NCBI GenBank assembly: GCA_033764315.1 | Contig: JANRJA010000170.1 | Span: 1-64,000, forward strand | From: Oculatellaceae cyanobacterium bins.114 | Lineage (GTDB): Bacteria > Cyanobacteriota > Cyanobacteriia > Elainellales > Elainellaceae | Reading direction: 5' to 3' | Length of the DNA stretch: 64,000 bases | Part shown: positions 1 to 61,323 of the stretch, piece after piece | How positions within the stretch are numbered: position 1 is the stretch's first letter | How the letters are laid out: every line of letters starts with the position of its first letter | Program-made: the position numbers and the translations under genes | The notes under the pieces: generated by a model | Database searches by the model: none | Seen by the model: only the letters and a program-made list of their open reading frames with translations | Told to the model about the DNA's origin: nothing

Positions 1-24
1 GCGGTTCAAGTCCGCCTCCTGGCA
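1..24 (+). tRNA. 3' end of tRNA-Phe(GAA); the 5' part lies outside the window; attL of the integrated element
   Basis: GCGGTTCAAGTCCGCCTCCTGGCA is a T-arm plus acceptor 3' strand; the longer copy at 12373 carries the anticodon arm GAGGA-CTGAAAA-TCCTC. Confidence 0.85.
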
Positions 25-255
25 TTATTCCTCGACTGGGAAAACAGTGTTGCAGTTAACGCACTCAACAATGTACTCAGATTCATCTTCATCAACCACT
101 ACGCCAGCTTCCCATCCATGATTTTCAAGGCATAGTGGGCAGCTTCCATCTGGGTATTGCTCACATTTCTCCTGAGCTGTCATTACTTCACCATTGTTTT
201 TTATGAAATAAGTCATCTTGTTTACCTGCGTAGTAGAGCAATTAGTCAAGCTCAA
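25..255 (-). CDS. Small CxxC...CxxC zinc-ribbon protein (start uncertain)
   Basis: CPLC and CVNC motifs; stop codon abuts the att repeat. Confidence 0.5.
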   Translation of the reverse strand: MSLTNCSTTQVNKMTYFIKNNGEVMTAQEKCEQYPDGSCPLCLENHGWEAGVVVDEDESEYIVECVNCNTVFPVEE

Positions 256-350
256 AGGCTCGATTTTCCGTTGTCAGTAGCATCGATGCTGAACGAGAGA
301 ATGAGGCTTTCAGACCATAACCGAGCGGTTATATAGTCCAAATTTAGTCC

Positions 351-1259
351 TTAGAATTCTGGGATGTTAATGATCCGGTTTCTTCCCACGTAGTGTTCGT
401 AAAGAACCTTTACAGAAACTCGTCCCAAATAGGACACATCTTGAGGGCTAAGGTGGTTCAACGCTTCAGTAAGCCAGGTATGACGGCAATGGTACTGACT
501 CAGGTAGAACGCGATTTTCCCTTCATCTACCAATCTCTCTACAAGTGGTTTCCAATGCCGTGTCTGAAAATTTTTGTAGTCAAATTCCCCTCCCTCGATG
601 CCAGTAAAAACAGGTGATTTACGATCGCACTGGAGATGATACAGGTCAGCTAAAAGGTCTTGAAGCCTTTGATTACAAGGAAAGCGAGTGCTTTTCCCGT
701 TTTTGGTGCCCTGCCGGATCTTCACATCGATGGGCAATGCTTCCTCAAACAGGATCTCTTTAAAGCCACCCGCGATATGTCCCCACCTCAGTGCGGCTGC
801 TTCCTCTGGACGGCAACCCGTCCAAAAAAGGAACTTCACCCAGTGGGAGTAGAAAAAATCATGCTTGTCAAACTCCTCAATGATGCGATCGCGTTCCTCA
901 ACCGTGAACGCTGCCCATGCTTTCTCGCCTGGTTGCTTGGCTCTTATCTGTCTAGCCAAACCGTCAAACGGGTTGAATTTGATGATGTTTGAAAACATTG
1001 CCCACCCTCCACACGCCTGGAGCTGGACCAAGGTACGGCGTGCTATCTCTGCTGAGTAGTGTTGCATGAGGTAGTCTCGAATCTCAACACTTGTCGCCAA
1101 CAGTGGGGCAATCGCGTTCATCTTCTCCAGCCGTCGAGTAATTTTTTGATAGTCCCGTTGGTAAGTAGATGGTGCAACCTGCCCGCGTCGAAACTCTGTG
1201 TACTGAGTCCACAGTTCACAGACCTGGATGGGATTAATTGAACGTCTCCTATCGTTCAT
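351..1259 (-). CDS. int: Tyrosine recombinase/integrase
   Basis: TGCRPEEAAALRW (catalytic R), TKNGK, YHCRHT, C-terminal HY tyrosine; next to the att site. Confidence 0.93.
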   Translation of the reverse strand: MNDRRRSINPIQVCELWTQYTEFRRGQVAPSTYQRDYQKITRRLEKMNAIAPLLATSVEIRDYLMQHYSAEIARRTLVQLQACGGWAMFSNIIKFNPFDGLARQIRAKQPGEKAWAAFTVEERDRIIEEFDKHDFFYSHWVKFLFWTGCRPEEAAALRWGHIAGGFKEILFEEALPIDVKIRQGTKNGKSTRFPCNQRLQDLLADLYHLQCDRKSPVFTGIEGGEFDYKNFQTRHWKPLVERLVDEGKIAFYLSQYHCRHTWLTEALNHLSPQDVSYLGRVSVKVLYEHYVGRNRIINIPEF

Positions 1260-1504
1260 CCATCTCTCAACTCTTGTATCTTTGACAAAGCTTCATTTCT
1301 TAACTGATTTACTCGCGTGATTTCGTGCCGTTTGACCTGGTGTGAGCACCGACCATTCATAAACCGCCCTATTAAACTGAAGTAGTAAGCTTCTCTCACT
1401 TCCCAAAACATCAACTCCATAGACGATGACTTGGTTGGTGGGGGAAGAGGGTTTATGACAGGCTCAGGAACATAAGTAAGCAGGTCTAACTGAGTGTGGT
1501 TCAT
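1256..1504 (-). CDS. Hypothetical element protein
   Basis: 4-bp overlaps with both neighbours suggest translational coupling. Confidence 0.6.
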   Translation of the reverse strand: MNHTQLDLLTYVPEPVINPLPPPTKSSSMELMFWEVREAYYFSLIGRFMNGRCSHQVKRHEITRVNQLRNEALSKIQELRDG

Positions 1505-1791
1505 CGCTTGCCCTCATGTGGGAACTCTGCGGTTCTAAGCTTTTCCTCTAAGACCGCGATCGCCTTGTCGCTTAGTAATTGCCTCAACATCCACCACTGA
1601 CGCGCCAGGGGGCGATCGCCAATCATCCTTCTTACCTGTGCTTCCTCTCTGCCTTTACGCACGAGAGCCACGATCGCCCATGCCACTAATCGGGGGGTGG
1701 GGTCACTGCCTTTCAACTGGCATCGGGTGATGTGAATTTGGATGCTGGTGAGGGTATCTAGGAGGTCTATCACTCCGTAGTCTCCTTCCAA
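1501..1791 (-). CDS. Hypothetical element protein
   Basis: Lies in the same operon, between the replicase and the integrase. Confidence 0.55.
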   Translation of the reverse strand: MEGDYGVIDLLDTLTSIQIHITRCQLKGSDPTPRLVAWAIVALVRKGREEAQVRRMIGDRPLARQWWMLRQLLSDKAIAVLEEKLRTAEFPHEGKR

Positions 1792-3221
1792 GGGGGATCG
1801 AAATGGCTCAAACCCTCTACAGGCAATGTGTTACACCCTGTTTCCTCAAAATTCCAGCCCTGAAACCACCTCGAACCCTTATCAGAGCTAGGGTTACACT
1901 CCCTTTCAGACAATAAGCTTTTAGCGAATTCTCGCTCACTCGCTCCTTCAGAGCTAGAGTGAGCAGATTCGATATTTCCAGAGGGGGGGTGCGGGGGGGT
2001 TTTCCACAGGTGCCGAGGGTGCCAAAGGTCGATGTGATATTCGTGGTAAAGCGTCTCACCACTGAACCCAAATTCCGTGGTTAAAACCGTGAATCTCTCC
2101 CTCGTTTCTGCGGGTAAGCGTCCCTGGTTCAGGAGCTGGGCGATCGCAAAGCAGATCCTTTCTCGTGCCCTTGCCTTGTGAAATTGGTTCCATTGGTTGA
2201 CGGCTGCCTCAACAGTCGTCGGCTCCGGTTCCTTCTTGCTCTCCCCATAGGGGTAATATCGGGAGTTCTCTACACACCGTACCCACTCCTCAGCCCGTTG
2301 GAAAATTTCATGCTTATGCCTACACCACTCGTGATAACCAGGTGCTCTGGTAGCCACTTTCACGATTTCCAGCACCAGGCGTTCACCCTCTAACGGCTTG
2401 CCTCCCACCAGGCGATGCCCAAACACATACGATCGTAGAGTGATGCGACCGAGTAGATAGTTTGTCTGCCCTGGACCTGTCCACCCTGTTTCTATTTCGG
2501 TGTTGAGGTCGTTAAGGAATTTTTCACCCTTGTAACCCAACTTGAAGTAAGTCCGGGTTGCTTCCTTGAGAACTCTGTTAAATAAGACCTGATTGATCTG
2601 GTTTCGTCGTTCGCACCAACCCCATTGACGACAAAACTCAATCTGAGTAGACCATTTTGGTGCCCACCAATCATCGAGAATGTAACTACCCGTTTGCAGT
2701 GGGAGGCGATGCCCTTTATAAAGTGAGGTGCCTCCCTCTGCGTCGTAGTTGCGAACGTTGGGGAAGATTTCTAGTAACCCATCCTCAACCATGAAGCCTT
2801 TATATTTGAGAATTTGGGCGACGACGGCGGCAATCTGCCAGGTGAGGAGAGGACGAGGTAACGGGAAATAGATATGGATTCCACCGCTGTAACTGCTGGT
2901 GATGGCGATGTGGTCGGTTATACCCAAAAGTTCTAAGGCTTCAATAATTCGTCCGGTTGCGAATCGGTCACGCTTGGGGTGATAGGGTGAGTTTCGATCA
3001 ATGTCAAGCATGAAATAGCTGGTTTCTATGCCAAACCTCACACCATATAGGTATTTACCCTCTTGTAGGTGTCGATCGCTGAGTGGGTGCCTGTCTTCGG
3101 TGTGCCACTCGGTTTTCTCACCTGGTTGGTGATGGGGTGCCCAAAGGTAATCCCATCTGTGGGGGAATAGCTCAAGAAATTGGTCTGTTTCGGGAATGTA
3201 ACGAGATAATGTGTTCGTCAT
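1770..3221 (-). CDS. Putative replication protein with an archaeo-eukaryotic primase (AEP/prim-pol)-like N-terminal domain
   Basis: hhhDhD motif (FMLDID), SxSGGxHhY motif (SSYSGGIHIYF), later HRLPLQ; no Walker A helicase domain seen. Confidence 0.7.
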   Translation of the reverse strand: MTNTLSRYIPETDQFLELFPHRWDYLWAPHHQPGEKTEWHTEDRHPLSDRHLQEGKYLYGVRFGIETSYFMLDIDRNSPYHPKRDRFATGRIIEALELLGITDHIAITSSYSGGIHIYFPLPRPLLTWQIAAVVAQILKYKGFMVEDGLLEIFPNVRNYDAEGGTSLYKGHRLPLQTGSYILDDWWAPKWSTQIEFCRQWGWCERRNQINQVLFNRVLKEATRTYFKLGYKGEKFLNDLNTEIETGWTGPGQTNYLLGRITLRSYVFGHRLVGGKPLEGERLVLEIVKVATRAPGYHEWCRHKHEIFQRAEEWVRCVENSRYYPYGESKKEPEPTTVEAAVNQWNQFHKARARERICFAIAQLLNQGRLPAETRERFTVLTTEFGFSGETLYHEYHIDLWHPRHLWKTPPHPPSGNIESAHSSSEGASEREFAKSLLSERECNPSSDKGSRWFQGWNFEETGCNTLPVEGLSHFDPPWKETTE

Positions 3222-3288
3222 TTTTTACGTACCGGTTCACACACACATAAAAGAGGCGATCGCCGTTTTACCGACGATCGCCCAATTT

Positions 3289-3546
3289 CTAAGCTTCGAC
3301 TTTTGTTAGAGGTAGCCTAACTACCTTCATCTCTTCCCTGGTGTTCATCTGCATCACGCAGGCATTACAAAGCAGTGCCCAAACAAAATCAGCCTCATCC
3401 CCATAAAAATGCTCTGTCTCTTTGTTGCCAAGCCAGATAATCAACTCTCTATCTTTGTCGGTGTCATCCTCAGTTGGAGTGTAATAGTGAGCCTGACAAA
3501 CTGCCTCAAGATTGATGATGGTGTTTCTAACTCGAAATAGTTGCAT
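3289..3546 (-). CDS. Hypothetical protein, first gene of the leftward operon
   Basis: ATG start with AAGGAA upstream; 85 aa. Confidence 0.6.
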   Translation of the reverse strand: MQLFRVRNTIINLEAVCQAHYYTPTEDDTDKDRELIIWLGNKETEHFYGDEADFVWALLCNACVMQMNTREEMKVVRLPLTKVEA

Positions 3547-3588
3547 TGTGCTATTCCTTTAAGTAGGTGGATTAGTTTTGTCAAAGTG

Positions 3589-3619
3589 AAGGGCATCCCT
3601 CGGCGGGGGTGCCCTTTTT
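3589..3619 (+). terminator. Intrinsic terminator-like hairpin
   Basis: AAGGGCATCCC...GGGGTGCCCTT followed by a T-run. Confidence 0.55.
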
Positions 3620-3761
3620 AGTGCGAGTGTGGTTATCCGTCTAAGCAATCTCCTGTAACGAAATGGGTAGCAATTGGATCATTTGGTATGCACAGCAAGG
3701 GGTAGCGATGACCGTCAAAGCCCCTCGCTGTGCTGCACTACCAAAACATGAGGTCTAAGAA

Positions 3762-4022
3762 ATGAGTGAATGGATGGCTTTAAACGCCGAAGATGTGATA
3801 ACTGTTGACACTGGCAAATTTGCTTGTATGAACTCTCCAACATTCAAAGCATCTGAATTGTTAGAGAGAGCTGATGCTGTCTTGGTAGCCAGGGGGCAAT
3901 TTCCTGGATTAACTACAGAGGGGCAATCATGCAAAGTGCTTAAGCCAGGGGACAACTGGCAACGGGTCAAAGTCAGAGTCAAGGTTGAATTGACTGTCGA
4001 GTACACGATCGAGGACCAATAA
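3762..4022 (+). CDS. KGK-domain-like cyanobacterial protein
   Basis: EGQSCKVLKPGDNWQRVKVRVKVELTVEY resembles the KGK-family C-terminal pattern. Confidence 0.6.
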   Translation: MSEWMALNAEDVITVDTGKFACMNSPTFKASELLERADAVLVARGQFPGLTTEGQSCKVLKPGDNWQRVKVRVKVELTVEYTIEDQ

Positions 4023-4037
4023 CAAGTTCAGCTATGC

Positions 4038-4071
4038 AAGCAGTCAGATTCCCCCATCTGGCTGCTTTTTT
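4038..4071 (+). terminator. Intrinsic terminator after the KGK-like gene
   Basis: AAGCAGTCAGAT/ATCTGGCTGCTT stem followed by a T-run. Confidence 0.65.
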
Positions 4072-4096
4072 GGTTTATATAAGTCACCTCCTTTGA

Positions 4097-4258
4097 AACC
4101 TCAAATGATTTGAGGTTCAATATTTTGTAGTGCGAGTAGATCTAACCCTGACTCGCACCACAGCCCTAGAAAATGAGCTAAACCTAATTTACCTCAAATC
4201 CTTTGAGGTAGATCAAGTTTTCCTCAAATTCTTTTACCTATATTTGATTTGAGGTAAA
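4097..4258. promoter_or_regulatory. Repeated palindromic operators ACCTCAAA-N3-TTTGAGGT upstream of the Xre gene
   Basis: Palindromes at 4097-4117 and 4190-4210; further half or degenerate sites at 4221-4229 and 4235-4256. Confidence 0.75.
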
Positions 4259-4519
4259 ATGAGAGATGAAGCGAATCCTAATTCTGTGTTTGTTCAACTT
4301 AGACGGCAGTTAAAACTCACTCAAAAGAACGTTGCTGATGAATTGGGCATCAGCGAACAGACCGTTCGTAACTGGGAAAACGGAAAAACTACCCCACAGT
4401 TGACCATTCCCCAGATGAAACGCCTATGCAATTTGCTGCAACGTTCTTTAGAGGAAGTGCCTGACTATTTCGGACCTATTGAAAATGCCGATCACATAAA
4501 TGCGATCGGCATGAATTGA
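4259..4519 (+). CDS. Xre/Cro-family HTH transcriptional regulator
   Basis: LRRQLKLTQKNVADELGISEQTVRNWENG is a classic HTH_3 motif. Confidence 0.9.
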   Translation: MRDEANPNSVFVQLRRQLKLTQKNVADELGISEQTVRNWENGKTTPQLTIPQMKRLCNLLQRSLEEVPDYFGPIENADHINAIGMN

Positions 4520-4620
4520 GATAAGGAGGTGAACTAACTAAAACTTGCTTTGAATTCTGGAGGAGGGTGAATGCTTGGCGGCTCCCCTCCTCTTACCCCG
4601 TTTAAAGGAGCAATTTGATC

Positions 4621-4995
4621 ATGACACGAGCAAAGACAATCATTCCAATATTGCTTTGGGCATTTTCCCAAGGCGTTTTTTTGTCCGGTTGCATTGATGA
4701 AACGACAGCATCAACCAGTTCACCAAGAACAGCTCTGGTTGTAAACGGTGAACCCGTTACAGAATGGCGACAAATCACCAGGGATGAGCACGATAAACTC
4801 ATGCGCTTGGCAGGTGGATTAGATGAAATCGGTCGGTTTAAGAACCCCATCCTCTTAAGTGATGTGGGGCTATCTCCAAGCACAGCTAACGGCTGGCTGT
4901 TAATGCGGTTCAACTGGGACCCAACGAACGGCATTGCCGTGAACGTTGAGGATGGGTATCTAACCCAGTCCATTTTCTATATTCCCCGTCAGTAA
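4621..4995 (+). CDS. Putative lipoprotein
   Basis: Hydrophobic signal ending in an LSGC lipobox; AAGGAG RBS upstream. Confidence 0.6.
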   Translation: MTRAKTIIPILLWAFSQGVFLSGCIDETTASTSSPRTALVVNGEPVTEWRQITRDEHDKLMRLAGGLDEIGRFKNPILLSDVGLSPSTANGWLLMRFNWDPTNGIAVNVEDGYLTQSIFYIPRQ

Positions 4996-4996
4996 A

Positions 4997-5410
4997 TTGA
5001 GTGAGGAGAACAGACATACTATGATGACATCGAACCCGATCGCTCAATTTACTGAAGCTGTGCTCTACGTCCTTGATTACCTGGTAGAGGGTGAGAAGAA
5101 GAGAACCATTCTTCAACCTGTTGACGCTGAATATGGCGTAATCCTTGAAGAAACATCTGATGGGAGTGACCTGATGAGAGGGTTACTTGCCAATGGGAAA
5201 CGTATTTTTGTTCCCATGTCACAAGTCCTTCATGTTGAAGAATGGAAGGTTCAAGTTAAAGCAGGTTATCTCGGCAGCGGCAGCCGGACGCTTCATCTAA
5301 ATGAGAAACAGATGGAACGTCTGGTTAACAATTTCCCACGCGATCAGGAAACTGGAGAGGTGAAGGGAATTGCCAATTTTGAAAAGGTAGAGCGGGACAA
5401 GAAAGAATAG
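4997..5410 (+). CDS. Hypothetical protein (probable start ~5021)
   Basis: ORF directly follows the lipoprotein gene; GAGGAG lies upstream of the internal ATG. Confidence 0.55.
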   Translation: MSEENRHTMMTSNPIAQFTEAVLYVLDYLVEGEKKRTILQPVDAEYGVILEETSDGSDLMRGLLANGKRIFVPMSQVLHVEEWKVQVKAGYLGSGSRTLHLNEKQMERLVNNFPRDQETGEVKGIANFEKVERDKKE

Positions 5411-5502
5411 ATAACGGCTAACATAGTGCTCAAAGACACCACTTCTACTAACCTTCCTCATGGAAGGTTTTTTTGTTGGGTCATTTGTCCCCAGTTGGGT
5501 AC

Positions 5503-5829
5503 TCATTTTTGTGGCCGCATGGGTTTTAGGCACGTCCAAACAGTTCCTTGTTTTGTGCAACCCAAATCTTGAAACAACTTGGGCGATCGCTCAGATACCT
5601 TCTGCCCACTGCAAAATCTATCTTCTACTGCTTCCTCTGAGATGGAATGATTGGGATTTATCCAATCACCCCAAACTGTTGTCTTAATACAGTTTTCCTC
5701 AAAACTATAGTCAGTTAAAAAACTAAATCCCCAACCATAAAAAACCCCTTTTTCTTCATTTGTGAAAATTTGTATTGCTAGAGTTGGGATGAAAATCAAA
5801 CCGATAATTACAAATAGTAATCTACGCAT
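5503..5829 (-). CDS. Small membrane-anchored or secreted hypothetical protein
   Basis: N-terminal hydrophobic helix, Cys-containing C-terminus, AT-rich sequence. Confidence 0.5.
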   Translation of the reverse strand: MRRLLFVIIGLIFIPTLAIQIFTNEEKGVFYGWGFSFLTDYSFEENCIKTTVWGDWINPNHSISEEAVEDRFCSGQKVSERSPKLFQDLGCTKQGTVWTCLKPMRPQK

Positions 5830-5838
5830 AAATCCTGA

Positions 5839-8010
5839 TTGATGGTTGAATCAAATCGTGGTGATTGTCCATTCGGAAGTGAACCCCGACCCAACGCCGA
5901 TCCAAATGCGGGTGTAATTGCCTTTGCCGATTTAGGAATACCGACCAGACCACGGGGAACTGGTCCAACAAGGATAGGACCGTTTCAATTTAACGATAAT
6001 GGCGCATTCCTTGATGTGGCAGACCTGACATCAGGTGCATACGACTTTAATATTGTTTATGTTGATGACCTCACTGGTTTTTGTAGCAAACCACCTCCCA
6101 CAGCTAACCAGATTTTAGATGTCAGTGGCTACCCTGATTCTGTACTAGCCCTCTTTAGAGAGAAAGCAGCGGCGATCGCGGCTCGACGGTGGAATCAAAA
6201 CTGTATCTGTGCCAGTGGCACCCCTGACCCGAACGCTTGCCGATATTGGGGAGGTAGGGGGCAATGCCCTGGCACTGCTTACGCATGGGAGGTAAATTAT
6301 TCAATCTCTCAATACAACACTATTGACGGCTCGTTCATCCAAACAAACTCAGCAGGGGGAACTTATGGATTGCCCCAAAATGGGAAGTTGTACTACGGAC
6401 CGATCGGGAGTCCACAATTTGTCGTCCAAGATGGCATCGCTAAATATATAGTGACCTATTACGATGACCCATTAGGGCAACAACCCAACACAGTAGATCT
6501 CACCCCATCCGCTAACATTGACCAAAATCAAGGTGTTTTTTACTATGTTTTCGATACCTTTGCCGCTTCCAACATGAGGGCAATCTTAGGGCAACGTGAT
6601 GATTGTTGCTCTACACCTCCAGCCCCACCCGATTACAACGATGACGTAGAAGATCCCAACAACATCATAGAAATTGATGGACCCGACTCACCCACAGGAG
6701 AACCCTTGACTATTATCGTGTTGCCCCTTCCCGGCATTGAAGGCGCACCAGGCGCACCAGGCGCACCAGGTGAACCAGGTGTTCCAGGGTCAAGAGGACC
6801 ACAAGGGGAACCAGGCATTCCTGGACCGCAAGGACCAGAGGGACCGAAGGGCGATCAGGGGAACCCTGGACCACCAGGTGAGCCTGGACCGTGCCCTAAT
6901 ATCACAGGAAGCCTTCAAATAGTGACGGAAGAACAGCCGTCACTAGAAGTAGAGAAGGTTGGACCATGCGATTATCTATTCAAATTTGCATTAAGAAATG
7001 AAGAAATGGAAGAAGTAATTATACAAGGTGTATTGAATATACAGAACTGTGATGGAAGTACTTTGTCAGTTCCATATGAAGGCAAAAACTTTGTAGGATT
7101 ACAGTCATTCTCACAGTCACTTTCAACAGCTTTGAAAGTGATGTCAGAGAATCAGTGTCCAGAAATAAAAGGTAAGACTGAACTACCAAATTGTTTTGAT
7201 TCAGAAGAAGATGCAAATGTCTTTATAGACACATTGGTAAGCTTCATAGTAGGTAAAATTGTAGACTTAGTAATTCTCTATTTTACAAAAGGAAAAGCAA
7301 CATTAAATCCTGTCTTAATGGAGTTTTTGAGTGCTCTAATTACAAATTTAATTATTGATATATTAGGCAGATTCATAGAAGCAACAACGGCACCACCACC
7401 ACTAGAATATGAAGGATATGGAATTTTAGGAATCAATAACAGAATCACCAATATAGAAACAATGCTGAAACAAATTGGTGAAGCTACATGTCCTGTAAAG
7501 CCACCTGAAGGAAGATATGAACAACCCAGTTGTATGGTGCTTCTACCATCAGAGCAATACAACGAATTCCAAATCATCAAACAGTTAATCATCACTTTCG
7601 GTTTGAATTACCCTCAAGATGTTGGTTCAAGATGGCATATTCACATTCCCGACCCAATAGACGGATTAAATTGGTGTACACACTTCGACAGCTTACAAAG
7701 AACTGTTGTGAATCGTGATTCTGAAACTCGTTATAGCGGGCGTATTTTTTGGGCAAATACATCGTTGTGGACGGGGGGTTACTTTGCCGGACGTGATGAA
7801 GCTAAAGAATTCTTAGAGCAAATTGCACAATTATCAAAGCTCACTCCCTCAGCTATCCGCATCTCCGAGAAAATACGTCCCGGTGGTCAATCGCTTGATG
7901 TATCGTCTCGTGATGTCAGAGCAGTGAGAGCCGTTGTTTCTCAACGTGCCGAAGATGAAGAAACAGCAGATTTAATACTATGTCTTGCCCCTCCTAAAGA
8001 GGGTTGTTAG
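5839..8010 (+). CDS. Large collagen-repeat protein, putative virion spike or attachment/entry protein
   Basis: 18 Gly-X-Y triplets (6733-6894), Cys-rich domains, two hydrophobic/amphipathic segments. Confidence 0.75.
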
Positions 8011-8215
8011 CGTTGTCATAGTCGGGATTCGTTGCCACGTACAACCGTCCCTTAAACTTTTTAGCCACAATCACACGCGACCTTAAAAGCGTCTTCACCT
8101 GGTTGCGAGTGTAAAAATTTTCCTTAAGCCATCTCGATAGTGGCACCAGTTGCAGCGATCCATCAGATCTACACCCCTCACAATAAAAATTGAATCGATC
8201 AGCAGGTGTAGGCAC
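7994..8215 (-). CDS. Small winged-helix (excisionase-like) DNA-binding protein
   Basis: [38 protein letters not shown] fits a Xis/HTH_17-like pattern. Confidence 0.5.
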
Positions 8216-8346
8216 AATTGACCCTCTTCTATTTCTGTCTTGTCGTATCTTACATACGACGATATCCTTCTTTGTGTCTTCTGTTGGCTCTAACTCAGTC
8301 AGAGAGCATACTTGAGAACAACTGTACTTAATTATTTGGGAACATT

Positions 8347-9123
8347 ATGACTCTAGCTATTGAGTATTTTAGTACCTCAGGAAATGCCACTGCTGCGGGT
8401 GTTTATATCCCGATCGCATCCCTACCAGGCTTAACATCTACAGAGCTTGAGAGTGGTGATGCAGATAAAGAGAGCAAAGTGCTTTTAGCTCTATGCAATA
8501 AGATTTTTGATGTATTGAACCCTACAAACTTTGACAAGCTAGGGTTTGCAGTTACCAAAGGTCAACCGACCGGGGCAGGAACTGACATCATCAACCAAAA
8601 CTACAGCTATACCAATACGTTTGTAGTCAATCATGCCGCTAACACTTTACTGCAAATTCCAGTCCCCTCATCAGGGTCATTCTCTGATGTTGGAAAATTC
8701 CGAATCGTTGAGGTATTCCCCAATGCGGTGGCAGTTGCAGCGAGTGGATCAGTCGCGGGCGCAGGTATCGTCATTAATGCATTGACGGCATATGGTGGAC
8801 CCACTCAATCAGAGGTTAGTAGTTCTATCGGTGATGCAGATGGCGACGATCGCCAGTGGTTTGCAGCACTGCTACAAATGCTGGTGAACGATTCCACCGT
8901 TCGCACAACTGACACTGCATCAGCCGTTATCGTAAAATCTCGCTCTAATGCGGCTGGTGTTGCTCCGTCTACGGCATTTACTGATGCAACCAACCCCACC
9001 ACTGGCATCACATCGGCTCAGTTGCCTTTGCGCTCATTCTTTAGCATTACCTATTCGATCACGTTGCAATTGGCTCTAAATCAAGCAACACAGACCTTTG
9101 ACGTCAGACACGTCACAGCATAA
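8347..9123 (+). CDS. Unknown protein with an internal duplication; candidate major structural protein
   Basis: A/G/T/S-rich; first gene of the putative late operon; two similar halves. Confidence 0.65.
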   Translation: MTLAIEYFSTSGNATAAGVYIPIASLPGLTSTELESGDADKESKVLLALCNKIFDVLNPTNFDKLGFAVTKGQPTGAGTDIINQNYSYTNTFVVNHAANTLLQIPVPSSGSFSDVGKFRIVEVFPNAVAVAASGSVAGAGIVINALTAYGGPTQSEVSSSIGDADGDDRQWFAALLQMLVNDSTVRTTDTASAVIVKSRSNAAGVAPSTAFTDATNPTTGITSAQLPLRSFFSITYSITLQLALNQATQTFDVRHVTA

Positions 9124-9175
9124 TCGTTTGATTTTCAGTTCTAACCAATAAAACACGATTGAGAGGTACTTAGAT

Positions 9176-9892
9176 ATGCCAAATATGGCAGTGGGTTTGA
9201 TTCCTACCTATTCCGATGATTTAGGTAGAGCGGTCACAGATGTAAGGTTTAAGATTCGAGGTGACAAACTACAGGTTTCTGGGTTTGGGCTTGCTCCGGC
9301 TGGTGGGTGCACTGGCACAGGGAATTTATTCACGCTACGTCACGCAGTGGCACAATATGCTGACGGCAGCACGATACGATATCCCATTGATAACCCTGTA
9401 AATACCATCACAGTGGTTCAAGCAGCGGTTGCGGATGGTGCGGTCTGCGTTCACGTTGAGGGTGAACGTTGGTCTTTCATTCCTCCTAACATCGTAGGAG
9501 CACAGGGAGGGAATCAGCAGACTTATGTGGTTAACCCTGGATTCGCTGACAAAGAAACGGGTCTATTCACATACAACTCCAATATCGTTGGAGCTGGGGT
9601 AAATGCTCGGTACGCGATCGAACTTTCACCCACTAACATCTCTGATGCGATTCGTGGCTGTCTCACTGCTCCGGTGGTCGGGACGGCTCCATGCTCTCTA
9701 GCAGGCGGAACCACACCCCGTTACTTGACTGTGTTAGCCAATAAGTTGGGGGGTGGACAAGTCGCACGACAGGCAAAGGTCAGTGATTGGGGTCTTCCTG
9801 TACGTACCTGTGCGGCTGCTCTCTATGCCGTTGGGTTCTGCGTCAAATATCAGGGTGAAAGTTATCGTAATGCTCACTTAGTATTGCCATAA
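9176..9892 (+). CDS. Unknown protein with an internal duplication; candidate structural protein
   Basis: GAGAGGT RBS; halves end CVHVEGE and CVKYQGE. Confidence 0.65.
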   Translation: MPNMAVGLIPTYSDDLGRAVTDVRFKIRGDKLQVSGFGLAPAGGCTGTGNLFTLRHAVAQYADGSTIRYPIDNPVNTITVVQAAVADGAVCVHVEGERWSFIPPNIVGAQGGNQQTYVVNPGFADKETGLFTYNSNIVGAGVNARYAIELSPTNISDAIRGCLTAPVVGTAPCSLAGGTTPRYLTVLANKLGGGQVARQAKVSDWGLPVRTCAAALYAVGFCVKYQGESYRNAHLVLP

Positions 9893-9893
9893 G

Positions 9894-10262
9894 ATGCTTG
9901 AACAGCAATTGAGACAACTTAGCAAATTTAGATTTGCTATCACCTACCCTAAATTGCCTGGATTTATTCTCAGGCTCAATTTTGAGCCTATTATCCTTAG
10001 TCACAATATAGAGGGCAATTATGCTCTTTTACATTGGCAAGCGATGCCAAAGGGAGAAAGAAGATGGGGATGTTTTTGCATGAAAGATGGTGAAACATCC
10101 TATCAATCTTTCATTGAATTAAATCCAGTTTCAGGGGTCACTTTAAGAGGTATTCAAATCGATGAAACCTTCTTTACTTTTGTGCCTACTGCCGTCATCC
10201 ATTGTCCAAACTGCTTTCTATCTGTTGATGGGGATTTCGGGATTCTTAAATTGATTGAATGA
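9894..10262 (+). CDS. Hypothetical element protein
   Basis: Tightly packed in the operon; HWQAMPKGERRWG motif of unknown meaning. Confidence 0.6.
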   Translation: MLEQQLRQLSKFRFAITYPKLPGFILRLNFEPIILSHNIEGNYALLHWQAMPKGERRWGCFCMKDGETSYQSFIELNPVSGVTLRGIQIDETFFTFVPTAVIHCPNCFLSVDGDFGILKLIE

Positions 10263-10978
10263 CGTGGAATCTTGCATACGATGGTGAGATAGATGTTTTG
10301 GCACTGCAATGTCAACCCTTTTTTATTGACACTGTTGTAGGTCAAAGATTGGTGATTTGTGCTGATAATCCTTTTGCTCAACCAAATTGGAATGTTGCAT
10401 TTTATCTAACAGTAATCACAACAATTTCAGACTTTCAAGGAACTGTGATTCCAGTTGAAGCACTCAAGCAAACGATTAGTTTAGGAGAAAACGCATATGT
10501 AGAAATACCTCAGTTTGTAACAGTTTATAAGCTGAAATTAGAGTTCCCTAAGTGGCATAAAGGCATGAAGCTTCAAATATGGGCACAAGAGCTACAGATA
10601 TCAGGTGAATTCTTCTCAGCCGAAACACAATCAGCGGTCGTCTCAGGACAACCCTTAATTCTTCAAATAACTGGAAAATTGGCTCTTGCAAGAAATGATG
10701 ATTTCGCTCTTTCCTTTGCAACCTGCTTCGGTGCCAGTGATGCCAATCCAACCGAACCCGCAAGCTATATCACCGAAGGGCAAATTTTTAGAGGTGATTG
10801 GAGTCCTGTAGTAGGGGTGCCTTCACTCATCCCAGGGGCAACTTACTATCTTGCTTCGACACCAGGCACCATGAGTGCGATCGCACCAACCGACCCCGGT
10901 TATGTGGTGGTGGCACTCGGAAAAGCCTTGACCACAAACCTGTTCGATATCGAAATTCAATCCCCAATTCTCTTATAA
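10259..10978 (+). CDS. Two-domain virion accessory protein (C-terminal decoration/fibre-like domain)
   Basis: C-terminus is paralogous to the next gene (PGATYYLAS..PG...AP...VVALGKAL). Confidence 0.6.
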   Translation: MTWNLAYDGEIDVLALQCQPFFIDTVVGQRLVICADNPFAQPNWNVAFYLTVITTISDFQGTVIPVEALKQTISLGENAYVEIPQFVTVYKLKLEFPKWHKGMKLQIWAQELQISGEFFSAETQSAVVSGQPLILQITGKLALARNDDFALSFATCFGASDANPTEPASYITEGQIFRGDWSPVVGVPSLIPGATYYLASTPGTMSAIAPTDPGYVVVALGKALTTNLFDIEIQSPILL

Positions 10979-10980
10979 CT

Positions 10981-11463
10981 ATGGCTCTCATTAAACCTCT
11001 GGTCATCATTAATGGACTTGTTCAACAACTCTCAGCGGCTGACACCCTTGATGCTGCTGTATCAGAGGTAGATGTAGTTTCCCTTACCAACAACCAGGGA
11101 ACCGCAGTGGTGATTGGTACTCCCGTCTATTCCAATGCCACTGGACAATACCGGAGCGCACAGGCTAACGCAAGCGGAACTGTTCAGGTTATTGGATTGG
11201 CAAAGGATGTATCAGTTGCTAACGCTGCATCAGGACTTGTTCAAACCGATGGTGTGATGGTCGCAACTACAACTCAGTGGGATGCTATAACCGGACAAAC
11301 AGGGGGGTTAACCGCTGGCTCTCCCTACTTCCTCTCAGCTTCGACCGCTGGCAGGCTAACTGTAACGGCTCCCTCTACCGTTGGTCAATTCGTCGTTCGC
11401 GTAGGAATTGCTCTGAGTGCCACTCAAATGGATATTACTGTTCAACCTCCTATAGGGCTTTAA
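10981..11463 (+). CDS. Virion decoration/fibre-associated protein (DUF2190-like)
   Basis: ATG at 10981; G-x-PVY...VIGLA...GLTAGSPYFLS...VVRVGIA pattern seen in phage accessory proteins. Confidence 0.6.
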   Translation: MALIKPLVIINGLVQQLSAADTLDAAVSEVDVVSLTNNQGTAVVIGTPVYSNATGQYRSAQANASGTVQVIGLAKDVSVANAASGLVQTDGVMVATTTQWDAITGQTGGLTAGSPYFLSASTAGRLTVTAPSTVGQFVVRVGIALSATQMDITVQPPIGL

Positions 11464-12131
11464 TGACTCGTTTCTTGGCTATAGTAAGCGGTCGTCCAAC
11501 GATGACAGACCTGGCAGTGCGATCGGCAGGTTTCATCATGCCGCGCATTCGTGCCACTCCCCTCGCTGCCTTTATCCTTGAGTACGATGGTTATTGGGTG
11601 CAATTGAGCGGTGATAGCACTCCTAGAACGATCGGCAATGCCTCATCAGGAGCGGCAACGGCTCAAAGCTGGACGAGCATTCTATACACACTCATTTGGA
11701 ATAATTACACACAAACTCAGTGTCCAGTCCTCACATCTGGGGGGGGTGCTTCGACGAGAGGGGCAAGTGCTAGTGCAGACTATTCAGCTAATAAACGGCT
11801 CACATTGCCTGATTTTAGGGGGCGATCGCTCATTGGAACCGGGACCGCTCCCAGTGGGACTACCAGAGTTGCAGGGGATACGATCGGTTTAGAGAGTGTA
11901 ACACTCACCACAGATCAGCTTCCATCGCACCGTCACAGACTAAATGCTTTGGGTACAGCAGGGGGTTCATTTAGAAATGTGAACGTTGCGACGGCAGGAA
12001 CCCTTGATCAATACGTTGATTCATCCGGTGGAGCCGCCTATGTTGAAAATACGGGTTCAGGACTTCCATTCAACATCATTCAACCTTGTCACGTTGTTGA
12101 CTACTGGATATCGGCAGGAGCACGAGCATGA
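11463..12131 (+). CDS. Phage tail-collar/fibre-family protein
   Basis: LTLPDFRGRSLIGTG, GLESVTLTTDQLPSHRH and ENTGSGLPFNIIQP motifs; TAATG coupling to the upstream gene. Confidence 0.75.
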   Translation: MTRFLAIVSGRPTMTDLAVRSAGFIMPRIRATPLAAFILEYDGYWVQLSGDSTPRTIGNASSGAATAQSWTSILYTLIWNNYTQTQCPVLTSGGGASTRGASASADYSANKRLTLPDFRGRSLIGTGTAPSGTTRVAGDTIGLESVTLTTDQLPSHRHRLNALGTAGGSFRNVNVATAGTLDQYVDSSGGAAYVENTGSGLPFNIIQPCHVVDYWISAGARA

Positions 12132-12373
12132 CCAGTGACAGTCTAGAAATATTAGCAACCGTTTTGGGTATCACTTCGCTGATTGCGGGGGGGATTGCCT
12201 GGTATCGTGGATCGGTTCAAAAAGCCTATGCCGCAGAACGTGAGATGGGGCATATCAAGCAAAACCTTCAACAATTAGGGCAGGGTTTAGGCTCAATCGA
12301 CAAGGAACTTGAGGAACTTAATCGGGTGATTGTCGAGATTAAAGCGTTAATATTGGCACAGACGAGGCATTAA
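12128..12373 (+). CDS. Holin-like small membrane protein
   Basis: One N-terminal TM helix plus a coiled coil; last gene of the operon; ATGA overlap. Confidence 0.5.
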   Translation: MTSDSLEILATVLGITSLIAGGIAWYRGSVQKAYAAEREMGHIKQNLQQLGQGLGSIDKELEELNRVIVEIKALILAQTRH

Positions 12374-12422
12374 GAGGACTGAAAATCCTCGTGTCGGCGG
12401 TTCAAGTCCGCCTCCTGGCATT
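12373..12422 (+). repeat. attR: duplicated 3' part of tRNA-Phe (anticodon arm to 3' end)
   Basis: AGAGGACTGAAAATCCTCGTGTCGGCGGTTCAAGTCCGCCTCCTGGCATT; lacks the acceptor 5' strand and D-arm. Confidence 0.92.
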
Positions 12423-12530: not shown

Positions 12531-14069
12531 ATGCCTGAACTTCAAGGTTCCATTGCTTATCATTATCACGAGCGCACCAAATACGACCCGGAAACGCTCG
12601 CAGGAAAGGCACATGAGCCAGATTGGAACAACCCACCAGTGCCCTTTAAGGAATACAAATTAGGGACTTCCTTTGATCTGAAGCCCTATATGACTGGCAA
12701 TGCAGATATTTCCACCGAAGAGGGGCAATATTGGCGACGCTTATCTCGTTTTTTGTTTTGCAGCTATGGGTTAACGCTAAGAATGATGACCCTCAATGGA
12801 GATCCGCTCTATTTGAGGGCGGCTCCATCGGCAGGTGGGCTTTATCCGGCTGAAGTATATCTGATCTCTCGCGGCACTCCCTTGTTACCCGCTGGGCTAT
12901 ATCACTATCAACCCCAAACCCATTCGCTGCTTTACTTTTGGGAGAATGAGGTGTGGAAGAGTTTGCAGAATGCCTGTTTTTGGAATTCCACCCTCGATAA
13001 CACTCAAATTGCAGTCGTCGTGACGGCAATCTTCTTTCGCTCAGCATGGCGTTATCAAGACCGAGCCTATCGCCGCATTTTTCTAGACTCTGGGCATTTG
13101 TTAGGAAATATTGAACTGGCAGCTGCCATTAATGATTATCGACCTCACTTAATTGGCGGGTTTGCAGACGAAGCTGTCAATGAGCTGCTTTATTTAGATA
13201 CGGCACAAGAAGGGGCGATCGCTGTCATTCCCCTAGCTGATCGCCTCCAAATTCGGGAGAATTTACCTCTGGCAGCCACGGCTCTGCCCTCTGCCACACA
13301 GACCACCTATCCTTACATTGCCGATGGAGATTTGCTGGCCTACCTGCATCGAGCTACACAAATTCCCAGTAATCAGCCATTTTCTAAACAGGATCTACTA
13401 AAACCCATAGCACCTGCTGAGCAAACGTTAGAAGATAAATACAATTTCCCGTTTTGTTTGAAGGTGCCGACGATTAGCACAGCCATTCAATGGGGCAATG
13501 AGCTAACCGATCTAGAGAAAACGATTCTTAAGCGGCGATCGACGCGGGCTTATACCGGGGATGATCTGACGCTAGATGAACTCAAACTCTTGCTCGACTT
13601 TACCTATCAGCCCAATCACTATGTCGATCAGGGGCTAGATCCCAGTCCTGATTATTTTGATCTTGACTTGATTCAGACTTTTATTGCGATTTCAGGGGTC
13701 GAGGGTTTAGAGGAAGGTTGCTACTACTATGCTCCTAAGGCTCAAGAGCTAAGGCAAATTCGCTTTAAGAACTTTCGACGAGAGCTACATATGCTCTGCT
13801 TGGGGCAAAATTTGGGGCGCGATGCTGGAGCTGTCTTGTTCCACACGGCTGATTTGCAGTTGGCTGTCAAGCAATATGGCGATCGCGCCTACCGCTATTT
13901 ACACATGGATGCTGGACATCTAGGGCAACGGCTCAACCTGGCTGCCATTCACCTGGGTTTAGGCGTGAGCGGCATTGGTGGTTTCTTCGATGACCAGGTC
14001 AATGAAGTGTTAGGCATTCCCACCGATGAAGCTGTGTTGTACATCACGACTTTAGGGAGACCGGGGTAA
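12531..14069 (+). CDS. SagB/ThcOx-family nitroreductase-like dehydrogenase (two domains)
   Basis: RAAPSAGGLYPAEVY, RAYRRIFLDSGH, RRSTRAY, DRAYRYLHMDAGH. Confidence 0.88.
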   Translation: MPELQGSIAYHYHERTKYDPETLAGKAHEPDWNNPPVPFKEYKLGTSFDLKPYMTGNADISTEEGQYWRRLSRFLFCSYGLTLRMMTLNGDPLYLRAAPSAGGLYPAEVYLISRGTPLLPAGLYHYQPQTHSLLYFWENEVWKSLQNACFWNSTLDNTQIAVVVTAIFFRSAWRYQDRAYRRIFLDSGHLLGNIELAAAINDYRPHLIGGFADEAVNELLYLDTAQEGAIAVIPLADRLQIRENLPLAATALPSATQTTYPYIADGDLLAYLHRATQIPSNQPFSKQDLLKPIAPAEQTLEDKYNFPFCLKVPTISTAIQWGNELTDLEKTILKRRSTRAYTGDDLTLDELKLLLDFTYQPNHYVDQGLDPSPDYFDLDLIQTFIAISGVEGLEEGCYYYAPKAQELRQIRFKNFRRELHMLCLGQNLGRDAGAVLFHTADLQLAVKQYGDRAYRYLHMDAGHLGQRLNLAAIHLGLGVSGIGGFFDDQVNEVLGIPTDEAVLYITTLGRPG

Positions 14070-14892: not shown

Positions 14893-15510
14893 TCACTCCT
14901 CCACATCTCGACTAGACATAAAGCGATTAGCGACTGTTTCGGGTTGAATGGCAGAAAGAATGACATGCCCTGAATCTGTAATAATGACAGCTCTAGTGCG
15001 ACGACCATACGTTGCGTCTACCAACTGTCCGCGATCGCGAGCATCGCTAATAATCCGTTTGATGGGGGCAGACTCTGGGCTAACGATAGCAATAACTCGG
15101 TTGGCAGAGACAATGTTGCCAAAACCAATATTGATCAGCTTGATGTCCATAACGGCTAATAGCCCATGTGAATTGGGGGACGGTGAATGGCTATATCGGC
15201 TGAAAACAAGACGTTGGGCAACCGTTTCGGGTTGAATCGCTGATAAGATGATGTGCTCTACAGGCGTGTGGCTATCCGGGTTTGACCCAGAGGATAGAGC
15301 ACGGCTCCCCCCTGACCAAAACTGACGGATATTATGGATAATAATCGCTGCTCGTGCTGGACGACCCTCCGTAGCGTCTTTGAATCTGCCTTGTTGTTGT
15401 GCATCCGTAATCATGCACTGCATTGAAGTTGACTCAGGGTCAATCACAGCAACCACCTCATCGGCAGGTATGGTGTTGCCAAAGCCGAAGTTGATTCGCT
15501 GAAAGCCCAT
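14893..15510 (-). CDS. remA: RemA/DUF370 family protein with two tandem domains (canonical copy starts at 15150)
   Basis: [28 protein letters not shown]...[12 protein letters not shown]...[10 protein letters not shown]; upstream of gmk. Confidence 0.88.
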
Positions 15511-49100: not shown

Positions 49101-49219
49101 TCTAACACAACCGCTTGATAGCCCGGTTTGAGGTGAGCCACCAGGGTTGAATAATCCTGAACAGCGCGATCGATAAAAACGTATGCAGTTCCGTTCACTT
49201 GCAAATTCTCCTTAACCAT
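46115..49219 (-). CDS. Large secreted/surface protein: DUF4347, two DUF4394-like repeats, Calx-beta, RTX nonapeptides, C-terminal bluetail-like domain
   Basis: HGSPG/LYGC, twice GIDFRP..G.L and DFNPTVDR, YTVAENGG, GxxGNDxL repeats. Confidence 0.82.
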   Translation of the reverse strand: MVKENLQVNGTAYVFIDRAVQDYSTLVAHLKPGYQAVVLESDRDGITQISEVLQTSYDVTEVHVVAHGSPGCLQLGNTQINLANLQHYATSLSQWRQVLVQGADLVLYGCRLAEQGWNAFSHILQNLTGANIAASSQTVGNGQWNFDRSLGNVKATVAFTPALQQSYTGTFAIGYVLSNNSLITFDTTNPDSPNAAVPITGVVAGESLVGIDFRPQNGRLYGLARDGAGAVRLYAISPQTGVATPLTAAPVQLTVDGVNPAPITGTNFGVDFNPTVDRFRVVTDGGFNFRMNPNTGALIDGNAVLAGVNPDGTISGASTTVDATAYTNNAPNVTVTTQYTLDAVSNQLLIQNPPNNGTQTAPLPVTLNGSPLDFTAVNGFDIPAGVNVTTSNTAATGRAIAALTVGGTTGLYGIELSTGVATALGTLGTGSLPVQGFAIQNDTTTTGTPLISLSSNGASLLRFSSATPGTVVTTAITGVPAGETVVGIDFRPATGQLFALSVNATADTGSVLILDPQTGAATVVGTPGQVAFVDGVGAPIDLPDPATAGYGIDFNPTVDRIRVVTSSGLNFRLNPITGAPVDGNVVTAGINPDSGVNGAATGVDATAYTNNFGGATTTTQYTLDSVSNRLLIQNPPNNGTQTAALAVTLNGTSLDFTAVNGFDIPSGVQVTTSNTPATGRGLAALTVGGVNNLYAIELSTGAATLLGAIGAGTAGSAGLTAAEAPVGAVAFGAATYTVAENGGAIAINLVRTGGSSGNLSVNLTATGGTATATTDFTGTPITVTFADGQTTATANLAITDDAISEAAETVSLALASPTNGAVLAAQDIATLTIADNDLITVRGTGRNDRLRGGNTGDLLLGLAGNDRLLGLGGDDSLNGGLGSDVTAGGRGADRFIYSGRTQQAALANSLVTAPDQIFDFKPGEGDRIVLDFDNRLATANLPRGLFNSGRENSSLLVDAARSAYADKDQRTTGNQGLRRNEAVLFSWRGGTYLSVNDNRAGFSATSDLVVNVTRIGLQPGDARAGVLTVANYFA

Positions 49220-57739: not shown

Positions 57740-58501
57740 ACCTGTGATAAAGGAGGCTTCATCAGAAGCTAGAAACAAGGCAAGATGAGCAATTTCTCGC
57801 GGCTCACCGGGACGACCAATGGGTTGAAACGAATCGATCGAGGCATAGATTTTGTCTAACCCACCCATCATGTCGGCATGGGCATAGTTAATAGGAGTAT
57901 CGACCCAGCCCGGACAAATTGCGTTACAGCGGATCCCCTGTTTGGCATAGTCGAGAGCAATGCCGCGAGTGAGCATAACGACACCTCCTTTAGATGCTGA
58001 ATACACGGCTAAAAACGGCTCAGATACCAATCCATTAACGCTAGAGATATTGACGATCGCCCCTTTTCCAATTCGCAACATATAGGGAATTGCTGCACGG
58101 CACCCATACATCGTGCCTTTGAGGTTGACATTCAGGGTTTTATCAATCACCGCATCAGAGACTTCATGAAACACTCCTGGAATGTTGACTCCAGCATTGT
58201 TGACCAATACATCAATTTGTCCATAATGCTCGACGCAAAATGCCACAAATGCATTGACCTGCAAAGGGTCACTGACATCGGCGGCAAATGCCTCAGCCAC
58301 ACCTCCGCTCTTTTGAATGGTTTCCGCTGTGGCGATCGCCGTGTCCTGGTTTAGATCAACACAGATGACTTTGCCCCCTTCTTCTGCCAATCGTTCAGCG
58401 ATCGCCCGCCCAATGCCTGACCCTGCCCCTGTCACTACACAAGCTTTCCCCTCGACTCGTCCCATCGCTGTCGCTATCCTTGATTTAATCGCACTGCTCA
58501 A
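57701..58501 (-). CDS. SDR family oxidoreductase
   Basis: TGAGSGIG, NNAG, YSASK. Confidence 0.92.
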   Translation of the reverse strand: MSSAIKSRIATAMGRVEGKACVVTGAGSGIGRAIAERLAEEGGKVICVDLNQDTAIATAETIQKSGGVAEAFAADVSDPLQVNAFVAFCVEHYGQIDVLVNNAGVNIPGVFHEVSDAVIDKTLNVNLKGTMYGCRAAIPYMLRIGKGAIVNISSVNGLVSEPFLAVYSASKGGVVMLTRGIALDYAKQGIRCNAICPGWVDTPINYAHADMMGGLDKIYASIDSFQPIGRPGEPREIAHLALFLASDEASFITGSIISADGGMTAQ

Positions 58502-61312: not shown

Positions 61313-61323
61313 TCTTTTAAAGC

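Follow-up and report, generated by a model that had tools for sequence, protein, structure and literature searches.

A 64,000-nt stretch of the genome of Oculatellaceae cyanobacterium bins.114 (contig JANRJA010000170.1 of assembly GCA_033764315.1, positions 1 to 64,000 of the forward strand; the window in the following) begins with a discrete element of 12.4 kb, which a first-pass annotation had taken for a complete temperate virus-like element integrated in tRNA-Phe and devoid of recognisable capsid and packaging genes. The pair of attachment (att) sites proposed there, 12,396 bp apart, is real: bases 1-26 are an exact copy of 12397-12422 at precisely this offset (28 of 29 bases are identical over 1-29), the 24-nt core of the repeat is present in two copies only in the 64 kb even if up to three mismatches are allowed, and 100 shuffles produced no match at all. 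About 20 open reading frames (ORFs) lie between the repeats, 91.6% of the element is coding, starts and stops overlap at many places and not a single frame is broken, in agreement with the absence of frameshifts stated earlier. With 0.73 HIP1 sites per kb in contrast to 1.69 per kb in the flank, and a tetranucleotide correlation to the flank of 0.85 (equally long host pieces: 0.86-0.95), the element is foreign, yet adapted to its host.

The ends of the element have to be read the other way round than originally suggested. ARAGORN calls a whole tRNA-Phe(GAA) at 12346-12420, but the same stretch reaches no more than 21.5 bits (cut-off 29) with the Rfam tRNA model and aligns to model positions 10-63 only, with an unmatched acceptor stem and an aberrant D arm; no tRNA in the 64-kb window reaches the Rfam cut-off. 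The tRNA-like stretch proper covers 12374-12420 (anticodon stem to 3' end) and begins right after the stop codon of the last gene of the element, g19 (12371-12373), so that the first 28 nt of the ARAGORN call are the end of the g19 ORF. The right att (12374..12422, + strand) thus consists of 47 nt left over from the 3' part of tRNA-Phe, with anticodon arm, T arm and 3' strand of the acceptor, plus 2 nt, and we regard it as an att-derived remnant and not as the tRNA gene of the earlier annotation, because otherwise the 5' part of the tRNA would sit inside the element. The left att repeat (1..26) comprises the terminal 24 nt of tRNA-Phe with two further nucleotides and is cut within the T-stem by the start of the window; four of the five bases pairing with the 3' strand of this stem (CCGCC, 13-17) lie inside the window, and the left copy therefore extends further to the left, which makes 26 nt a lower bound for a repeat of possibly up to about 49 nt. 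The intact tRNA-Phe would accordingly lie to the left of base 1 of the window, ending at base 24, and the integrase gene would adjoin it, which is the usual arrangement. Both repeats match the 3' end of a tRNA, by the 26-nt exact repeat on the left and the 47-nt remnant on the right, as is characteristic of a tRNA-integrating element.

The right-hand part of the element is occupied by a rightward operon, whose genes were scanned together with the others (22 ORFs of the element in Pfam and PHROGs, 20 in NCBIfam). From g13 to g19 the intergenic gaps amount to -4 to +52 bp, which bears out the tight coupling noticed at first. Upstream of these genes, g12 (5839..8010, +) encodes a protein of 723 aa, in which a variable N-terminal part is followed by collagen triple-helix repeats (residues 299-351, PF01391, E 1.8e-9) and by a conserved C-terminal part with hydrophobic helices at 460 and 491; like g14 it is also rich in Cys. 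Residues 390-723 are 36% identical to a protein of a Leptolyngbyaceae contig, one of three relatives described below. Antisense between g12 and g13, and overlapping the g12 stop by 17 nt, lies the 73-aa gene g12b (7994..8215, -), which is found at the same place in the Leptolyngbyaceae contig (7244-7438, -; 45% identity, phmmer E 6e-16) and may encode a small DNA-binding regulator or an excision factor. The core proteins g13 (8347..9123, +), g14 (9176..9892, +) and g15 (9894..10262, +), the second being the most conserved, are followed by g16 (10259..10978, +) and g17 (10981..11463, +; phrog_12121, E 6.4e-6), which share a C-terminal domain of 60 aa (BLASTP 39% identity, E 4e-8) and, without a counterpart in any of the three relatives, are specific to the present copy. 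The next gene, g18 (11463..12131, +), is tail-fibre- or tail-collar-like: it matches the tail protein family phrog_8763 (E 3.3e-19) and, below cut-off, Gp10_C (E 1.1e-4), and its relatives in five phage records are tail-collar proteins of three Bordetella phages and of two Arthrobacter phage records. The fibre-like genes of the first-pass annotation are hence well founded in g18 and in the collagen repeats of g12. Its holin-like last gene corresponds to g19 (12128..12373, +), which encodes 81 aa with one N-terminal hydrophobic helix, stands in holin position and has a homologue in the Leptolyngbyaceae contig. None of the proteins g12 to g18 possesses an N-terminal hydrophobic segment, so they should leave the cell by lysis only; the Pfam and NCBIfam scans revealed no secretion, pilus or conjugation genes among the ORFs of the element.

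Two of the core proteins deserve closer attention. An exhaustive profile search places g14 in a family of 129 representative clusters, 102 of them at E<=1e-10, and word-based searches retrieved 17 proteins for g13 and six for the C-terminus of g12, the window's own protein counted in each case. Seven of the 16 other g13 proteins are encoded on contigs of 10-16 kb, seven on shorter ones and two on contigs of more than 60 kb; the closest one (75% identity) is found on a contig of 12,884 bp, and three of the five g12 relatives reside on contigs of 13.4-13.9 kb. One g13 relative carries the UniRef name 'Virion structural protein', and the nearest ESM Atlas cluster, which possibly is g13's own, is labelled viral to 84%, while the same resource gave no usable match for g14. 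Searches of reference collections with the two families were negative: no PHROGs match was obtained for 91 g14-family and 17 g13-family members, no Pfam match for the 91 g14-family members, and no match of either family in a sequence search of the PDB. AlphaFold models of g13 (pLDDT 87.8, pTM 0.88) and g14 (pLDDT 95.7, pTM 0.91) contain helices and hairpins, that is, mixed alpha/beta folds, for which Foldseek found no PDB structure at E<=0.001 (best E 0.044 for g13 and 0.28 for g14). The only real match of g13 in BFVD is a 216-aa protein from 'Bacteriophage sp.' (E 6.3e-13, TM 0.67/0.79). Further BFVD matches to tail-completion and minor-capsid proteins (probability 0.3-0.6), as well as PDB matches to the Mu tail terminator and the Chi neck protein (probability about 0.2), are weak, and the tail or neck fold they suggest for g13 should be taken as a lead and not as a finding. 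The g14 protein is a tandem duplication of a domain of about 115 aa (residues 6-102 against 128-233, 97.3% probability, E 2.8e-11), in both halves of which Tyr, Cys, Arg, Cys and Gly-Glu are kept in 78-91 of 91 members. A paralogous relationship between g13 and g14 could be ruled out (probability 0.3%). A predicted protein of 1604 aa with 15 JmjC domains, which aligned 15 times with 48 residues of the g14 profile, was discarded as an artefact of summed repeats of a short Gly-Glu motif.

Among 72,556 plasmids g14 has two matches, both on circular molecules: the 17,272-bp plasmid P1 of Microcystis aeruginosa NIES-298 (CP046059 / PV068373) and the 32,475-bp plasmid pGM3709_05 of Geminocystis sp. 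NIES-3709 (NZ_AP014826.1). A third relative, the 13.5-kb Leptolyngbyaceae contig from a metagenome-assembled genome (MAG), came from one scan of genome contigs, as one locus out of eight pattern matches; it encodes the C-terminal part of g12, g12b, g13, g14, g15 and g19 at 36-47% identity, and neither integrase nor Rep is visible on it. A nucleotidyltransferase and a HepT-type protein, together forming a toxin-antitoxin pair, directly adjoin its late operon (2990-3689). In all four elements g13, g14 and g15 are syntenic. P1 encodes a collagen-repeat protein and homologues of g13 (25% identity), g14 (27%) and g15 (35%), arranged as here, and shares with the present element a tyrosine integrase, a helix-turn-helix (HTH) regulator and the lack of recognisable capsid or packaging genes; unlike it, P1 is a circular episome of 17-18 kb, replicates with VapE instead of a plasmid Rep and is without g16-g18. 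The Geminocystis plasmid likewise keeps the order of g13 (its N-terminal part), g14 (27% identity) and g15 (31%), and a small membrane protein in the position of g19 ends its operon, followed by a GH19 lysin. It differs from the present element in its size of 32.5 kb and in a phage-type replication set (single-stranded DNA-binding protein SSB, DEAD helicase, DUF3987 primase, Gp157, methyltransferase), and has a serine recombinase and large proteins of 860, 410 and 331 aa without assignment as features of its own. The replication modules differ, with a plasmid Rep here, a VapE primase-helicase in P1 and a DEAD helicase with a DUF3987 primase in pGM3709_05, and the P-loops of the relatives are confined to the replication helicases.

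None of the three relatives gave a match to terminase, portal or capsid; four of the 28 late proteins of the two plasmids have a PHROG match (weak or non-head) and one has a Pfam match, and no meaningful Pfam match was obtained for the 13 ORFs of the Leptolyngbyaceae contig outside its chromosomal and toxin-antitoxin genes. The first-pass annotation would have fallen if its relatives were much larger tailed prophages, and what was found instead are two circular episomes of 17 and 32 kb and a MAG contig, all lacking these genes. Between g14 and g15, all three relatives have a set of four short genes, A-D, whose products of 126-187 aa are mostly soluble. In the present copy g15 starts one base after g14 and g16-g18 follow; of the earlier term 'complete', it thus holds that the element is discrete and undecayed, but not that it contains the whole gene set of its relatives, four genes of which are missing. 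Both plasmids were deposited as such and are typed as non-mobilizable. P1 was termed a 'phage-like plasmid' of 18,380 bp by Stark et al. (2025, PMC12510456), the record from 2019 being 1,108 bp shorter; the same report gives a geNomad virus score of 0.69, a nucleotide identity of 87% over 71% of its length to the 'uncultured phage contig NODE385' and a resemblance to 'Bacteriophage sp.' contigs, and it leaves a phage, a reduced phage-plasmid and a plasmid with acquired genes all as possible (PMC12510456). This paper was the only one that our literature searches for such a family returned, and none that defines the family or its core proteins was found.

The left arm of the element runs in the opposite direction. 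The tyrosine integrase (351..1259, -) is confirmed by phrog_1 (E 2.3e-25), although PF00589 (E 9.7e-5) remains below cut-off with 22.6 bits against 27.1, which characterises it as a divergent tyrosine recombinase; in an alignment made by eye R150, K186/189, R259 and Y287 are present, and Tyr and Arg stand at the two usual His positions. Between it and the gene of the replication initiator (Rep, 1770..3221, -), g03 (1256..1504, -) and g04 (1501..1791, -) are translationally coupled by overlaps of 4, 4 and 22 nt; both lack a family in Pfam, PHROGs and NCBIfam, and the small protein g01 (25..255, -) with its two Cys pairs has none at a usable score in the same three collections. By tblastn, Rep belongs to a cyanobacterial plasmid Rep family: it matched 74 plasmid records, whose organism names are cyanobacterial throughout; in 60 of these the alignment spans 80% of the query or more, with 29-53% identity, and one homologue is annotated as 'replication-related protein'. 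Homologues are found, for example, on the 44,343-bp plasmid NC_020288.1 of Synechocystis PCC 6803 and on plasmids of Nostoc PCC 7120, from which the Rep described here differs in that its gene is part of an element that integrates and has a phage-type switch. In Pfam, NCBIfam and the PDB sequences Rep has no match. Of the 'AEP-like replicase' proposed earlier (AEP, archaeo-eukaryotic primase), the replicase has thus found a family, whereas the AEP character is suggested by an Asp-x-Asp and a Gly-Gly-x-His motif in our own reading of the protein. An assignment to CyRepA was dropped, since CyRepA carries DUF3854 and DEXDc domains as described in PMC10079941 and the present Rep is without a Pfam domain. 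A 13-kb plasmid of Leptolyngbya boryana was also discarded as a relative, having only Rep in common with the element.

Between the two arms lies a control region resembling a lysogeny switch. The Cro/CI-type HTH repressor (4259..4519, +) matches HTH_3 (E 1.4e-12) and the transcriptional repressor family phrog_3 (E 6.8e-11); PADLOC returned the HTH protein as its single match. The operator cluster in front of it (4098..4258) comprises six ACCTCAAAT half-sites within 4098-4255, including two 19-bp palindromes (4098-4116 and 4191-4209), while the half-sites at 4221-4229 and 4247-4255 overlap a promoter-like site (4233-4260) just upstream of the repressor start codon. Four of the five exact ACCTCAAAT sites of the 64 kb are located inside this 158-bp cluster, and the repressor with operators of the first reading can thus be retained. 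The surrounding ORFs are g06 (3289..3546, -), after which a terminator-like hairpin is seen at 3283-3254; g07 (3762..4022, +), a weak KGK-domain protein (PF08872, E 1.7e-4, below cut-off) with a similar hairpin at 4038-4067; g09 (4615..4995, +), with a lipoprotein-like hydrophobic N-terminus ending in Cys; g10 (4997..5410, +), with a terminator-like hairpin at 5450-5469; and g11 (5503..5829, -), small and with a hydrophobic segment at its N-terminus, whose call is uncertain due to an overlapping ORF on the + strand (5460-5687). A 14-nt word occurs in both control regions (3615-3628 and 4124-4137, 13 of 14 positions identical) beside stem-loops (3589-3616, 3690-3733 and 4126-4162) and might point to an origin of replication, a small RNA or a further site for a regulator.

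Among the scanned ORFs no terminase, portal or capsid family was found in Pfam, PHROGs or NCBIfam; 17 of 22 have no PHROGs match at all, and none of the 22 matches a head or packaging family. A Walker A motif is missing in all six frames, loose GK[ST] matches being restricted to the HTH and integrase proteins, where they stand in non-P-loop contexts. The absence of recognisable terminase, portal, capsid and Walker-A ATPase, as noted in the first place, is thereby confirmed. The capsid architectures of known bacterial double-stranded DNA (dsDNA) viruses are very few in number, and almost all of these viruses package their DNA by a P-loop ATPase. Measured against the known groups, the element shows neither the large terminase, the portal nor the HK97-fold capsid of tailed phages (Caudoviricetes). 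Capsid and FtsK/HerA-type ATPase of the double jelly-roll viruses were not found either, structures having been modelled for g13 and g14 only, and no P-loop and no matching family point to the Zot/pI ATPase and the small hydrophobic coat protein of Inoviridae. In having genes for integration, replication and regulation within the size range of 7-20 kb and no capsid gene set, it does resemble a satellite; a small terminase or capsid-size gene was not found in it. A virus with an internal membrane was considered and seems unlikely, as the small late proteins of the four elements mostly are without membrane-type segments.

In our opinion, the element, integrated and undecayed, is best explained as belonging to an uncharacterised family of cyanobacterial episomes that are small, temperate and virus-like. 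This fits best because the core persists despite the exchange of the replication genes, and because of the lysogeny switch, the gene in holin position, the viral labels of the relatives and the small size. The dense coding with coupled genes, the low HIP1 density, the location of metagenomic relatives mostly on contigs of 10-16 kb, the wide distribution, confident model and duplication of g14, and the lack of N-terminal hydrophobic segments in g12 to g18 count in its favour as well. A core that stays constant across three unrelated replication modules in four elements displays the pattern of a lineage-defining virion module, and the Geminocystis plasmid, complete in replication and lysis genes of phage type and yet without head genes, implies that the absence of hallmark genes is a trait of the family and not the result of loss. 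We lean towards a self-made particle of a new type, at a probability somewhat below one half, and dependence on a helper is the main alternative. Such an element would integrate by recombination between its att and the 3' end of a tRNA-Phe gene of the chromosome through the tyrosine integrase, the repeats being present as described and the intact tRNA being presumed to the left. Its repressor would hold the switch in lysogeny by binding the 19-bp palindromes before its own gene, and the excised circle would be copied by the plasmid-family Rep, whose homology is clear and whose episomal state is suggested by the circular relatives. The late operon might then build a particle from proteins of unrecognised folds, with g13 and the tandem-repeat protein g14 as main building blocks, together with g15, the collagen-stalked g12 and three fibre or knob proteins, g16-g18, of which these last would serve attachment, while the small membrane protein g19 would assist in release. 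A more far-reaching version sees in g13-g14-g15 the virion genes of bacterial dsDNA viruses of a new lineage, in which the shell would consist of g13 and of g14 with its fold absent from the PDB, the duplication in g14 would result in pseudo-hexameric capsomers after the model of double jelly-roll proteins, packaging would do without a P-loop ATPase, and replication modules would be swapped freely during a life as prophage or plasmid in cyanobacteria; we think this rather unlikely.

Several observations speak against a virus-like family. No capsid fold, portal, terminase or P-loop protein was found in the element, and without a P-loop protein or packaging gene a dsDNA particle would need some unrecognised packaging route. 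Searches with g13 and three g14-family queries yielded no match in 50,697 phage records, so that no isolated virus vouches for these proteins, and the sole structural leads for g13 are the weak tail-completion, minor-capsid and neck matches mentioned above (probability 0.2-0.6). Proteins A-D are absent from the whole 64-kb window (nothing but noise in tblastn at E<=1 and nothing in phmmer), a lysin is not recognisable in the present copy, and in the alignment made by eye the integrase has other residues at the two usual His positions. P1, moreover, was stable as a plasmid across re-sequencing and years of culture (PMC12510456).

The first rival reading is a helper-dependent satellite, which excises and replicates on its own, is packaged in the capsids of a helper cyanophage and uses its late operon for adsorption, tail-tip, neck or capsid-redirecting parts. 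Phage satellites range from 7 to 20 kb (PMC13376191), and the present element corresponds to them in size and layout (integrase, replicase, repressor, tRNA site), in the missing capsid, portal, terminase and ATPase and in the unrecognised lysin; g18 as a true tail-fibre relative, the weak neck and tail-completion leads of g13, a weak tape-measure match of the P1 counterpart of g12 (E 2.8e-6) and the lack of the four family genes A-D would also be in line with it. We nevertheless judge a satellite to be unlikely, if still to be taken seriously, as the 32-kb Geminocystis plasmid possesses a replication set and a lysin and still has no capsid or terminase match, neither a small terminase nor a capsid-size gene was found, the remaining 51 kb of the window contain no prophage, g13 and g14 have no counterpart in the phage records searched, and about 6.5 kb of conserved structural-type genes are far above what satellites commonly carry. 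The same comparison can be drawn with the known satellites and tRNA islands (P4-like elements, phage-inducible chromosomal islands (PICI), marine virion-encapsidated integrative mobile elements (VEIMEs), tycheposons), which with about 12 kb, integrase, replicase, repressor and a tRNA att, and without capsid and terminase, look alike; they differ from the present element in that more than half of the latter is a conserved structural-type operon, that no capsid-remodelling or small-terminase gene was found, and that there is no known helper.

If the operon instead made something released or displayed on the surface, for instance fibrils, an adhesin complex or a bacteriocin-like particle, the element would be an integrative plasmid with non-virion cargo and would move as a plasmid. 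The occurrence of its Rep family on 74 cyanobacterial plasmids, the deposition of two complete relatives as plasmids of a non-mobilizable type, one of them (P1) stably kept (PMC12510456), and the collagen-like and Cys-rich g12 together with the Cys-rich g14 would suit such a function. Against it, proteins g12-g18 have no signal-type N-termini and no secretion, pilus or conjugation gene was found; the repressor with operators and a late operon with its end in holin position are arranged as in a phage, a lysin closes the same operon in the Geminocystis plasmid, and relatives are labelled viral, for which reasons we hold a plasmid with non-virion cargo to be improbable. A decayed remnant of a larger tailed prophage, stripped of its head and packaging genes, might be suspected from recognisable homologies that are of tail type only (g18, collagen repeats), from the four missing family genes and from a left junction outside the view; it is hardly compatible with the high coding density, the overlapping starts and stops, the unbroken frames and two intact att copies, nor with small relatives of which none has head genes and a 75%-identical g13 on a contig of 12,884 bp, and we consider it very improbable, the best reading being that the element is not derived from a tailed prophage in this way. 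Corticoviridae with PM2-like proviruses, Tectiviridae and Matsushitaviridae, small tailless temperate dsDNA phages with double or single jelly-roll capsids, come close to the element in their size class, their integration in aquatic bacteria, two adjacent mid-sized structural genes and their spike or fibre genes; unlike these jelly-roll phages, the present element has no packaging ATPase, its g13 and g14 models are mixed alpha/beta without a PDB match, and small membrane proteins are few.

The g14 family seems worth pursuing in either case: it comprises at least 129 sequence clusters with a confidently predicted fold absent from the PDB, is missing from the 50,697 phage records, and occurs in elements resembling temperate phages. 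If particles exist, they would represent a virion of a new type, in a phylum of major ecological importance to which the bloom-forming Microcystis belongs; if not, satellites or plasmid cargo of a new class would be scored as viral by virus-detection pipelines, which matters for the reading of cyanobacterial viromes. Plasmid P1 of NIES-298 makes the system testable in a culturable strain.

To the right of 12422 the window continues as an ordinary cyanobacterial chromosome with genes for guanylate kinase, TsaD, SpeA, ClpP, SigF, CtpA and others. The first host gene past the right att (12531-14069, +) codes for a peptide dehydrogenase of the SagB family (E 7.9e-62), perhaps as part of a peptide natural-product locus beside the integration site. 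A RemA-family match at 14893-15510 (-) comprises two stretches within residues 121-202 only of a 205-aa ORF, whose start codon or N-terminal half possibly is misjudged. At 46115-49219 (-) an ORF of 1034 aa with a terminal 'bluetail' domain (E 1.4e-20) encodes a putative surface protein, and 56114-61971 (+) harbours a complete ligase-associated DNA damage response cluster with ATP-dependent ligase, DEXH helicase and PdeM phosphoesterase.

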